A stretch of 57,987 bases of DNA, taken from Myxococcota bacterium. Its GTDB lineage: Bacteria > Myxococcota_A > Polyangia > Polyangiales > Sandaracinaceae. Below the pieces are notes generated by a model. That model had not been told where the DNA came from. It was given only the letters and a program-made list of their open reading frames with translations, and did no database searches. The translations under genes were made by a program, and so were the position numbers. Position 1 is the first letter of the stretch, and each line of letters begins with the position of its first letter. Positions 43,675-48,045 of this stretch are shown piece by piece. The stretch spans positions 1 to 57,987 of the forward strand of contig JAYZQJ010000059.1 of assembly GCA_036149055.1 (NCBI GenBank), given 5' to 3'.

Positions 43675-45024
43675 ATGGAGGGCGCGGAGACGGTGGTCGA
43701 GGGGGCGCTGGAGGGCACGACCGGCGATGTGGTCGCCGCCCGCCTCGACGTCCGCGTCCAGGCCAGCGACCAGGTCCTTCGACTCGCCCACGGGGACGAG
43801 GCCACCGTCGTCACCGACGCGGGGAGGGTGCGGCTGCGCTTGACCGAAGCAGCGCTCGAAGGAGAGCCGTTCGAAGCGCGTGGGACCTGGGGCGAGGTGT
43901 TCAAGTTGCTCGGAGCGGCGGCTGCCGCGCTCGAGATCGCGCCCCACGTACGTGTGACCGTCCAGGGTGAGATCCTGCGCGCATCGCAGCGGGTGGTCGC
44001 GCGCGGTCGAGGGGACAGCGGGACCTATCGCGATGGGAGGCCCTCGGCGGTGATCGTGACCGATGTGCGGCTGCGTCGAACGCCCGGGATCCGGCGGCCT
44101 GCCTTCTCCATCCTCGTGCCGTCCGCGGCGGCGGCGTGCCTCGGTCTCGCCTCGATGGCCGCGTTCGCGGCGACGGGCGGAGCGCTCCGGGTCCTGAGCG
44201 TCGGGTGGCTGGTCTGGGCGGGTGCGCTCGCCAGCGTCGCGGCGCGCCGAGCGCTAGGGTTTCCCCATGCGGGCCGCTCGCCTCTCCAGATGTGCTGGCT
44301 GCCGCAGCCACAGCGGGTCGGGGCCCGCGAGGATCGGCAGTCGGACCACGTACGCGGTGGCGCGGCAGGTTTCGTCGCCATCATGGCTTCTGCGGTGCAC
44401 GTGGTGCTGCTGCTCGCATCGTACGAGACGGTGCTGGCGGGCGAGTATGCGGTCATGCATGTCGTCGTCGTGCTGCCGTGCTTCGCGGTCGCGGTCGCTC
44501 TCGGCTGGCGCGACTGGCGAGCTACGCGAGACGCCGCGGCGACCGCACGAGCTTTCCTGCGCTCGACGGCGTACCGGCGGCAGAGAGGGACCGCGGTGGC
44601 GGGGGCGGTTCGACGAGACGTGCGCGTCGAGCTCGTGACCGAGGGGTTGGGGCGTGGACGGGTCTCGCTCGATCGTGCCCACGAACGACTCGAGGCGTCA
44701 CCCTCGCTGCGGCTCGACAGCGGGTCCGAGGTTTCGCTCGATGGCGCGACCTGGCTGTCGATGAAGGTCCGCGTCGAAGAGGACGGGGAGGGAGGCCGCC
44801 ACGTCGTGGAGCGGCTCGAGCCGGGTGACGCGGTGCAGGTCGCGCACACGCACGAGGCGCCCGAAGCCCGCGGCCCGGACACGCTGATCGTGGCCTCAGG
44901 GGCGGCGGGGCGCGATCTCTCCGGTGTCCTCGCGCGGGGGCTGCGTCTCCGCGCGGTCGGGCTCGTCGGGGCTGCTCTCGGCGTGGTGGCCCTGGCGCTG
45001 AGCGTCTGGCTCAGCCCAGGTTGA
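43675..45024 (+). CDS. Hypothetical multi-pass membrane protein
   Basis: ATG 1 bp after the pentapeptide gene stop; about five hydrophobic segments; 3' end overlaps the convergent gene by 14 bp. Confidence 0.65.
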   Translation: MEGAETVVEGALEGTTGDVVAARLDVRVQASDQVLRLAHGDEATVVTDAGRVRLRLTEAALEGEPFEARGTWGEVFKLLGAAAAALEIAPHVRVTVQGEILRASQRVVARGRGDSGTYRDGRPSAVIVTDVRLRRTPGIRRPAFSILVPSAAAACLGLASMAAFAATGGALRVLSVGWLVWAGALASVAARRALGFPHAGRSPLQMCWLPQPQRVGAREDRQSDHVRGGAAGFVAIMASAVHVVLLLASYETVLAGEYAVMHVVVVLPCFAVAVALGWRDWRATRDAAATARAFLRSTAYRRQRGTAVAGAVRRDVRVELVTEGLGRGRVSLDRAHERLEASPSLRLDSGSEVSLDGATWLSMKVRVEEDGEGGRHVVERLEPGDAVQVAHTHEAPEARGPDTLIVASGAAGRDLSGVLARGLRLRAVGLVGAALGVVALALSVWLSPG

Positions 45025-46578: not shown

Positions 46579-48045
46579 TCAGGCGTCGTCTTCGAAGTCG
46601 ATGAGAATGCCGGACCGCGTGCGAATGGCGCTCCGGGTGGCGTTGGACACGGTGAGCGGCGTGCCGGTGCTCGGGTTCGGGACCGAGCCGACGATGACGG
46701 GGCGGTCCGGATCGCCGCCCACGTGAGCGAGCAAGACCTCCGCGCCGACGTGCAACGTGAAGTGCATTCCATAGGATGGGCCGCTGTAGGGCTCCGCCTT
46801 CCGGATCCACCGCGTCGCCCGGCCGCCGTATTCGCCGTACAGGTCGAACGGCATGACGACGCGGTAGCGGCCCTGGTCGTCGATCGGTGCCGCGCTGCTC
46901 ACGCTCTCGGCGTCGATCTTCGCGTGCACCACGCCGTCGATGCGCGGCCAAGGCGTGATCCGCGGAGGCCGGAAGACCGTGGCGTAGGGGATCGCCTTGA
47001 GCTCGTTGCGGTAGGTGCCCGAGCCCGGGGCGAGGCTGTCCTGCTCGGCGAAGTGGCGGACCTCGGTGAGCACGTACTCGATGTCCAGCTCGCCCACGGG
47101 CGCGCCGGTCACCGTGAACCGACCACCGGGCGCGAAGTCCGGGTTGGTCGACGAGGCGGTGTACGTCTCTTTTCGCGCGAGCCACTCTTCGCCGCGGAGT
47201 CGCGCGTGGACGGCGCCTTCGTCATCGTCCTTGAAGTGGTCGCCGTAGTACGCCTGCAGACCCGTGCCGTGTTCGGTGTCGATGTCGAAGTCGCCCTGAA
47301 CGGGCCGCGCCGGCGACCGCCAGTTGTACTCACGGACGTGGACCCGCTCGGGCATCTTGCGGGTGACCCGCCCGAGACGATGGACGGCGCCGACGACGCC
47401 CTGCTGGTCGTGCTGCGCGTAGGTGCACTCGCCGTGGTCGGGGGCCGGCAGGAGCTCGGCGTTCGTGTCGGTGACCACGAGCTTCTCACCCGCGTCCGTC
47501 TGCTCGAAGCAGTAGAACATCCCGAGCCGCTCCATCCAGCGGCTGAGGAACGCGAAGTCGCTCTCCTCGTACTGGGCGACGTACTCGCGCACGGGGTAGT
47601 CGCCCTGCAGCCGCAGCTCGAAGTCCGTGCCCTCCGCGAGCTGCATCTCGCTCAACACCGCGCGGATGATGTCGGGGACGCTCATCTCGTTGAACACGCG
47701 CGAGCGGTGGCTCAGGCGTGAGAGCCAGAAGCGCGGGACGAGCCGCACTTCGTAGAAGGACCTGCGCCCCTCCTGCTCCATGTCCACCAGACGGATCTCG
47801 CGGAGCACGCCCGAGATCCGGTACATCGCTCCGGGCCCGAAGCCGACTTGCGCGCTCGCCGCGAGCAGCGCGTCGATTCCCTCCGGCCCGATGCCGCCAT
47901 CGATGCTGCAATCGAGCTGCAGTGAGAACTCGTAGGGCGTCGACATCGCCTGGAAGCCGCGCAGCTCCGATACCTCGAGGTCGCCCTGCTCGAAGCCCTC
48001 CGCCGTCGTTTCGAAGTAGATCGTATTGTCGAGGTTCGTCGTCAT
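46579..48045 (-). CDS. vgrG: Type VI tip protein VgrG, truncated after the gp5 OB fold
   Basis: STPYEF, RSRVF, REYVAQYEESDFAFLSRWMERLG, IDDQGRYRV, GMHFTLHVGAEV, GDPDRPVIVGSVPN; ends IRTRSGILIDFEDDA*. Confidence 0.95.
   Translation of the reverse strand: MTTNLDNTIYFETTAEGFEQGDLEVSELRGFQAMSTPYEFSLQLDCSIDGGIGPEGIDALLAASAQVGFGPGAMYRISGVLREIRLVDMEQEGRRSFYEVRLVPRFWLSRLSHRSRVFNEMSVPDIIRAVLSEMQLAEGTDFELRLQGDYPVREYVAQYEESDFAFLSRWMERLGMFYCFEQTDAGEKLVVTDTNAELLPAPDHGECTYAQHDQQGVVGAVHRLGRVTRKMPERVHVREYNWRSPARPVQGDFDIDTEHGTGLQAYYGDHFKDDDEGAVHARLRGEEWLARKETYTASSTNPDFAPGGRFTVTGAPVGELDIEYVLTEVRHFAEQDSLAPGSGTYRNELKAIPYATVFRPPRITPWPRIDGVVHAKIDAESVSSAAPIDDQGRYRVVMPFDLYGEYGGRATRWIRKAEPYSGPSYGMHFTLHVGAEVLLAHVGGDPDRPVIVGSVPNPSTGTPLTVSNATRSAIRTRSGILIDFEDDA

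Follow-up and report, generated by a model that had tools for sequence, protein, structure and literature searches.

A group of myxobacteria encodes VgrG, the central spike protein in type VI secretion systems (T6SS), in two genes. In the 57,987-nt stretch of DNA analysed here (contig JAYZQJ010000059.1 of the Myxococcota bacterium assembly GCA_036149055.1, family Sandaracinaceae; hereafter the window), a 488-aa VgrG stops soon after its OB fold, and a separate gene for a 518-aa protein begins 11 nt further on. This two-gene VgrG is genuine and lineage-wide. Sequence comparison and structure modelling identify the 518-aa protein as the rest of the beta-helix needle of a DUF2345-type VgrG, and it is quite probable that the T6SS central spike is built here from two gene products, a hub and a needle. 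VgrG is usually viewed as an obligate fusion of hub and needle, with cargo attached C-terminally or laterally.

46579..48045, minus strand: VgrG hub, 488 aa, with a gp27-like domain, the gp5 OB fold and the first 2-3 beta strands; ends in FEDDA
46568..46578, minus strand: intergenic gap, 11 nt, with a purine run resembling a ribosome-binding site and a TAA in the needle frame; same in contigs of 4/4 runs
45011..46567, minus strand: needle protein encoded by itself, 518 aa; a homologue of the C-terminal half of DUF2345-type VgrGs

The divided VgrG and its conservation

The hub was matched by Phage_GPD (PF05954, E 2e-62, residues 33-336) and by the OB fold (PF04717, E 4.6e-10, residues 389-455), and scored 283.7 bits against TIGR03361 (cut-off 186.35), while the Pfam scan found no gp5-C or DUF2345 part in it. 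In a profile alignment of 37 such hub ends, the hub stop falls at residue 509 of VgrG1 of enteroaggregative Escherichia coli (EAEC), 2-3 strands into the needle; a first-pass annotation of this DNA had placed it where the beta helix normally begins. The needle is not on the hub polypeptide, which stops at residue 488 with the needle in a separate gene, and hub and needle would work like one VgrG only as a two-chain pair.

The hub gene ends in IRTRSGILIDFEDDA-TGA and is separated by GGGGGTAAGCG from the 518-aa open reading frame (ORF), which lies in the -1 frame; the lengths, coordinates and change of frame agree with those first annotated. A GAGGGGG purine run overlaps the hub stop. A TAA in the needle frame lies 6 nt upstream of the needle ATG, and therefore fusion by readthrough or frameshifting is impossible at the window locus. 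The junction, for which a check of the reads had been proposed, was spanned with 0 gaps by contigs of 4/4 runs from 4 studies, which carried 8-12 substitutions elsewhere; the split is therefore not a sequencing frameshift, and the same agreement speaks against an assembly error. One of the locus-spanning contigs came from an RNA library, which says nothing on transcription. The GC content at third codon positions (GC3) is 0.92-0.93 in both genes, and a promoter and terminator scan gave no useful signal near them.

The needle profile matched 11/32 genomes of the family, 38/201 of the order (many of them weakly) and 2/301 drawn from the phylum. The survey took in 62 loci, the window among them. 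A hub was absent, or cut short by the limits of the stretch, in 22, and one locus was a full-length VgrG of this genome taken as a control; the other 39, from 22 genomes, were usable, although as kin they are not independent counts. Hub and needle were separate in all 39 (0 fused): 37 hubs share their end point to within 0-2 residues and the other 2 run 39-54 residues on, so that the split first noted at the window is conserved among homologues. In the 35 colinear loci, the needle lies in the +1 frame of the hub in 16, the -1 frame in 11 and the 0 frame in 8, and recoding is blocked in 10; in the remaining 4, hub and needle are on opposite strands (3 loci, including one on contig C182 of this genome) or the needle is upstream (1 locus). 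A hub domain was found on 0 of the best 150 needle family members, and length-shifted searches, one of them covering 1244-3550 aa, returned no fused close homologues, which is weak evidence.

In a hub tree of 135 columns, rooted for drawing only, 38/41 truncated hubs formed one group (support 93/76, unstarred). This group adjoins, with weak support (73/84), two Tvp-linked fused VgrGs, one of them of the T6SS-5 type, and the VgrG on contig C155 of this genome. The genome holds 3 truncated hubs among 16 VgrG matches. The second (L049, G000:C182:61453-64872) has an opposite-strand needle that ends right at the hub stop and carries two ASH/Ig-like N-terminal domains. The third (L048, G000:C198:5400-12302) is followed by a long-type needle of ~1270-1300 aa with a large unknown insert and then by a PKMT-like methyltransferase gene; the same methyltransferase cluster lies 3' of long needles in 7 loci. 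On a plasmid of Bradyrhizobium barranii (NZ_CP096252.1, L175:7001-8476), a 491-aa VgrG also stops close to where these hubs do, and no needle gene is evident among its nearby annotated genes or ORFs.

The needle: predicted fold and variation

The window needle has no match above cut-off in Pfam (PF13296 included), NCBIfam or PHROGs, where 6 needles matched 0 families, and no tblastn match to it was found in plasmids. The needle family profile recovered 531 clusters (50% identity) at E<=0.001. A profile of 139 family sequences matched the EAEC VgrG spike (6SJL, E 1.2e-5) and the Francisella VgrG (6U9E, E 9e-4), and DUF2345 (PF10106) was matched by 8/33 members at E<=0.01 (best 4.5e-8), the window protein itself giving no match. 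An hhalign comparison with 8 DUF2345-type tails gave a colinear alignment that opens at the first strand past the cut, with paired segments QRLRIHVP/EHIKLSTE, TTVSLG/TQLNLG, GFGVDTEGHVFI/GAELRTDDWISI and GGTTIHGSTG/PGMLLHAPDG.

In the AlphaFold (AF2) model of the needle, a leader helix (residues 10-47), two helices (192-229 and 235-265) and short beta strands (436-504) are predicted, with extended chain around the helical hairpin; across the family, only 190-225 and 233-265 show an alpha-like periodicity. The sole Foldseek match of the model at E<=0.001 was 6SJL (E 2.7e-4), and VIA placed model residues 126-360 on 6SJL 533-712 (Z 8.6, root-mean-square deviation 3.6, 169 residues), a score within 1 Z unit of those of unrelated beta-meander and helical-hairpin proteins. 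The VIA matches of residues 418-518, to the Francisella VgrG 6U9E at Z 7.9 and to a baseplate chain of phiTE at Z 7.7, stay below the bar of 8, and a whole-protein Atlas search gave gp5-C leads only, all sub-threshold. The profile and Foldseek matches to 6SJL bear out the first-pass proposal that the second protein continues VgrG in the DUF2345 manner. The needle is divided as follows.

46382..46567, minus strand: acidic N-terminal leader, residues 1-62, variable; predicted helix 10-47
46211..46363, minus strand: most conserved segment, residues 69-119 (QRLRIHVP...GFGVDTEGHVF); aligns with the DUF2345-type strands right after the cut
45746..46042, minus strand: Pro-rich linker and Gly/Ala-rich helical hairpin insert; AF2 helices 192-229 and 235-265, alpha periodicity
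45014..45745, minus strand: distal beta-helix and terminal strands ending in INLG; beta periodicity

The leader is as acidic as had been described (net charge -13 over residues 1-60), and the terminal beta repeats correspond to the predicted strands at 436-504. The Gly/Ala/Trp-rich hydrophobic helices were recovered in part: two helices are predicted, but their hydrophobicity is no more than moderate (highest Kyte-Doolittle mean over 19 residues, 1.12). Residues 69-119 would be the docking segment that extends the hub beta helix, and the C-terminal end is a putative PAAR-docking end.

Needles are polymorphic and mostly 420-1300 aa long. Members P0003 and P0013 share 85% identity in their N-terminal extension, 90% in segment 66-120 and 22-41% beyond it, where P0003 resembles the window needle (46-66%). 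The needles are mosaic and, relative to the hubs, variable, in keeping with the exchangeable spike first proposed. N-terminal extensions of at least 150 aa occur in 33/150 members, and 5/11 scanned extensions matched ASH/Cep192/HYDIN Ig-like families; in relatives, a leader like that of the window is replaced by ASH/Ig-like repeats or by other extensions of 150-650 aa. Needles also occur in triplets, with 8 arrays in 3 genomes and a mean identity within an array of 19%. The best match of a triplet member lay at the same position of another array in 23/23 cases (one broken first member left out), also when only other genomes were considered; this pattern fits three non-equivalent chains of one trimer and suggests that the triplets form heterotrimeric needles. 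Co-duplication of an old block of three genes, each making a homotrimer of its own, would produce it as well. Triplet arrays and N-terminal Ig-like extensions, which the first-pass annotation did not contain, are the more unusual features of the family.

In genome G008 (89% complete), 14 needle matches stand beside 15 VgrG-type matches, of which 3 are cleanly truncated hubs, and the hubs are therefore probably shared in trans among needles. A large, variable needle family that sometimes comes in fixed sets of three suggests a plug-in tip and not a broken gene. More tentatively, a few generic hubs may serve many needles from separate genes, among them obligate A-B-C heterotrimers from fixed triplets whose first chain usually has Ig-like domains at its N-terminus, and the polymorphic hairpins may act on prey or competitor membranes. 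Several needle triplets or hubs (L040, L045, L123, L124 and L128) have a T6SS FHA-domain gene directly upstream, and a DUF3467 gene stands beside hubs and needles in 8 loci.

Proposed spike assembly and alternative readings

The window locus has the gene content of Tvp class III, namely TvpAB, TvpB, TvpC and a DUF4150 PAAR protein beside vgrG, when Pfam matches are set against the class definition in the accessible text of PMC13373197.

48051..48464, minus strand: DUF4150 PAAR-like tip protein (PF13665, E 1.1e-28)
48476..49330, minus strand: TvpC (DUF3540; PF12059, E 2.4e-25), named after PMC13373197
49327..51096, minus strand: TvpB-like pentapeptide-repeat protein, 589 aa, with Pfam pentapeptide repeats on the C-terminal 357 aa
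51093..53414, minus strand: TvpAB, 773 aa, with DUF2169 (PF09937, E 2.3e-84) and pentapeptide repeats (PF00805)
41517..43673, plus strand: convergent pentapeptide-repeat gene, ~720 aa (Pfam)

The last of these is a probable further Tvp-like chaperone gene; a pentapeptide-repeat gene also lies beyond the needle in the closest relatives (L030, L031, L032, L034, L036 and L037). Tad/Flp pilus-like genes flank the Tvp-VgrG cluster on both sides (window 27774-40876 and 53466-55277) and comprise an ATPase, secretin-like, CpaB-like and TadE/TadG-like genes, a prepilin peptidase and pilins, all labelled by eye except TadE; the left-hand block is also adjacent in L037, of the same genus. The genome (9.9 Mb, 96% complete) carries TssB/TssC (TssC E 1e-131) on contig C31, beside core-like T6SS ORFs recognised by eye. 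One ORF in this cluster (G000:C31:33762-34409), missed by Pfam, is Hcp-like by position and by eye and possibly encodes a divergent tube protein. A search with the eCIS tube family matched nothing, its control included.

In a two-product spike, three hub chains would form the baseplate-binding head, and three needle chains would form an intertwined beta helix whose first strands (~69-119) stack on the last strands of the hub by beta-sheet extension. The DUF4150 PAAR protein would cap the far end, TvpAB, TvpB and TvpC would act as chaperones of this capping, as in Serratia, and the assembly would be fired by the T6SS core encoded elsewhere in the genome. The split would free the needle N-terminus for extra domains, leave the part of the needle downstream of the docking segment open to diversification and recombination, and permit sets of three different needle chains. 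By analogy, a non-covalent contact of hub and needle would have precedent in Francisella PdpA, which co-precipitates with a needle-only VgrG (PMC5924787), and in the stand-alone DUF2345 protein of the E. coli PAR pair, which co-immunoprecipitates with its VgrG and is non-toxic (PMC10673891), as described in the accessible portions of these sources.

Several observations weigh against such a spike. Profile-profile probabilities between needles and DUF2345-type tails are only moderate (61% local, E 8e-5; 84.5% global, E 8e-7), and the AF2 model (mean predicted local distance difference test score 81, predicted template modelling score 0.61) is a monomer, the trimer being taken over from homology. 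In 9 close loci, picked after inspection, segment 68-119 alone varies in step with the identity of the hub (two hub regions give rho 0.63 and 0.67 at a permutation p of 0.002; rho 0.42 with the OB region; other needle segments at most 0.09); across all 26 loci the relation between hub and docking-segment identity is weak and non-specific (rho 0.14-0.18). The tail of a full-length VgrG of this genome, used as the control, matches the needle profile weakly (E 5e-8), and distant fused forms are under-sampled because the profile was seeded with stand-alone proteins. Hcp was not found by Pfam in this 96%-complete genome.

Among the alternatives, recoding that yields one fused VgrG, or a decayed gene or assembly error, is scarcely credible. 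The ORFs are adjacent and colinear, TGA is the hub stop in 31/35 colinear loci, and recoding is unblocked in 25/35; against this, programmed frameshifting or readthrough was rejected on the in-frame TAA at the window and the occurrence of all three frames among relatives, opposite strands are used in 3 loci, needles have N-terminal domains of their own, GC3 is alike in the two genes, and the independent assemblies agree. It is unlikely, if less so, that the needle is an assembly placeholder or adaptor, the truncated hub being a decoy or completed by something else. TvpC provides a model for this, as a beta-prism trimer that mimics VgrG and is exchanged in the course of assembly (PMC13373197, accessible text); needle genes lie away from any hub in L040, L123, L124 and L126, and 2/33 needle members have weak DUF3540 matches. 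But the locus already holds a TvpC, the needle picks up at precisely those residues that the hub lacks, the hub by itself offers PAAR no tip, and truncated hubs are accompanied by needles in 39 loci.

The first-pass annotation also took the needle itself to be the effector, with a Gly/Ala/Trp-rich hairpin that enters, damages or fuses target membranes. This would add to the two-product spike; we consider direct membrane damage by the hairpin possible but doubtful. The insert (median length 78 aa) has kept its position in 139 aligned members; no part of the core is less conserved, and it starts with an amphipathic helix. Its median peak hydropathy of 1.46 lies above the range of 8 DUF2345-type hairpins (-0.25 to 1.16) and nears the values of a T6SS-5-type VgrG tail (1.91) and a Tvp-linked Caballeronia VgrG (1.73), but the window insert reaches just 1.12, some members (P0021 and P0026) have polar hairpins (0.2-0.3), and the following beta segments are about as hydrophobic (at least 1.6 in 40/139, against 43/139 inserts). 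The insert is no novel addition: by hhalign and VIA it sits where DUF2345-type VgrGs already carry a helical hairpin, its position in 6SJL being taken from our alignments. Membrane-acting precedents exist among Tvp class III spikes, as the Serratia VgrG1 pathway depolarises target membranes and has an adjacent immunity gene (PMC13373197), and VgrG5 is required for cell fusion, its direct role being unproven (PMC9635284), in the text of both that was accessible. The suggested kinship with VgrG5 stood only in part: the hub groups weakly near a T6SS-5/VgrG5-type VgrG with the same tail layout, but similarity of the tail sequences is marginal (hhalign probability 10%, hmmsearch score strongly biased). 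No toxin gene lies 3' of the needle in the window, no conserved immunity-type gene was found 3' of the needle in the loci examined, and the PAR DUF2345 protein alone is non-toxic in E. coli. Searches for a pore-forming-toxin fold gave generic helical hairpins (VIA, residues 182-269, Z<=8) and nothing above the bars (Atlas, residues 170-290), results that exclude nothing. The hairpin is most likely a surface decoration, a polymorphic element that binds cargo or targets.

A convergent 449-aa gene (window 43675-45024, plus strand) with ~5 hydrophobic segments overlaps the needle 3' end by 14 nt. Membrane-protein-like ORFs stand at the same place in L031 and L032, with no tblastn match to it. The gene was considered as a candidate for immunity and rejected: it has no homologue in the fetched loci or the rest of the genome and no Pfam match, and the loci of closest synteny, L030 and L036, are without such a gene.

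Known spikes and the meaning of the split

Hub and needle together span the architecture of EAEC VgrG1 (6SJL/6SK0), the needle aligning from after residue 509 through the hairpin into DUF2345. EAEC VgrG1 is a single polypeptide whose hairpin is shorter and polar and which is extended at the C-terminus, whereas here there are two genes, the hairpin is longer and more apolar with ~50 extra beta residues ahead of it, and the needle N-terminus is free. Tvp class III, exemplified by VgrG1-TvpAB-TvpB-TvpC-Paar1 of Serratia marcescens and VgrG5-TagAB/B/C/D of Burkholderia T6SS-5, shares with the window the same four accessory genes and a long needle, and the hub groups weakly with Tvp-linked VgrGs; in contrast, the VgrGs there are described as single long proteins, and neither 'split' nor 'truncated' occurs in the main text of the source (PMC13373197). 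In Serratia an immunity gene lies directly 3' of vgrG1, whereas none is evident at the window locus.

In Francisella (T6SS-ii, 6U9E), the hub PdpA and the VgrG, a beta-helix needle without an OB fold, are likewise separate proteins. PdpA is large and divergent, belongs to another T6SS subtype and has a needle of 164 aa, whereas here the hub is the ordinary N-terminal half of a T6SS-i VgrG and its needles are long and polymorphic. The E. coli PAR and Pseudomonas aeruginosa PS42 DUF2345 genes and the split vgrG loci of Acinetobacter (PMC6838775) also place a separate gene for the C-terminal part after vgrG; they belong to scattered strains, and the accessible descriptions include no lineage-wide fixed cut, triplets or N-terminal Ig-like domains. 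Phage T4 gp27/gp5 has hub and spike on separate chains (layout from the accessible part of PMC5924787), with the gene boundary before the OB fold, whereas here it lies after it. The split vgrG itself thus has precedent in Francisella, Acinetobacter and E. coli PAR. What is new is a VgrG that truly spans two genes and has a polymorphic, probably detachable needle, which we regard as a variant of the known VgrG spike. In the literature covered, outside which most subscription papers fall, we found no description of a myxobacterial needle family, of triplets or of N-terminal Ig-like domains.

A lineage-wide split after the OB fold would imply a non-covalent beta-helix junction that survives firing in T6SS-i. 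In phage T4, gp5C remains bound after cleavage. The split would turn the N-terminus of the needle into a site for display, and it brings to light an unannotated family of 531 clusters. Heterotrimeric needles and cargo at the N-terminus, and not pore formation, are the most surprising leads, and the triplets may serve as a natural test case for defined heterotrimeric spikes. With a split needle, the membrane activity of long Tvp-class spikes, which is poorly understood, could also be studied apart from the hub.

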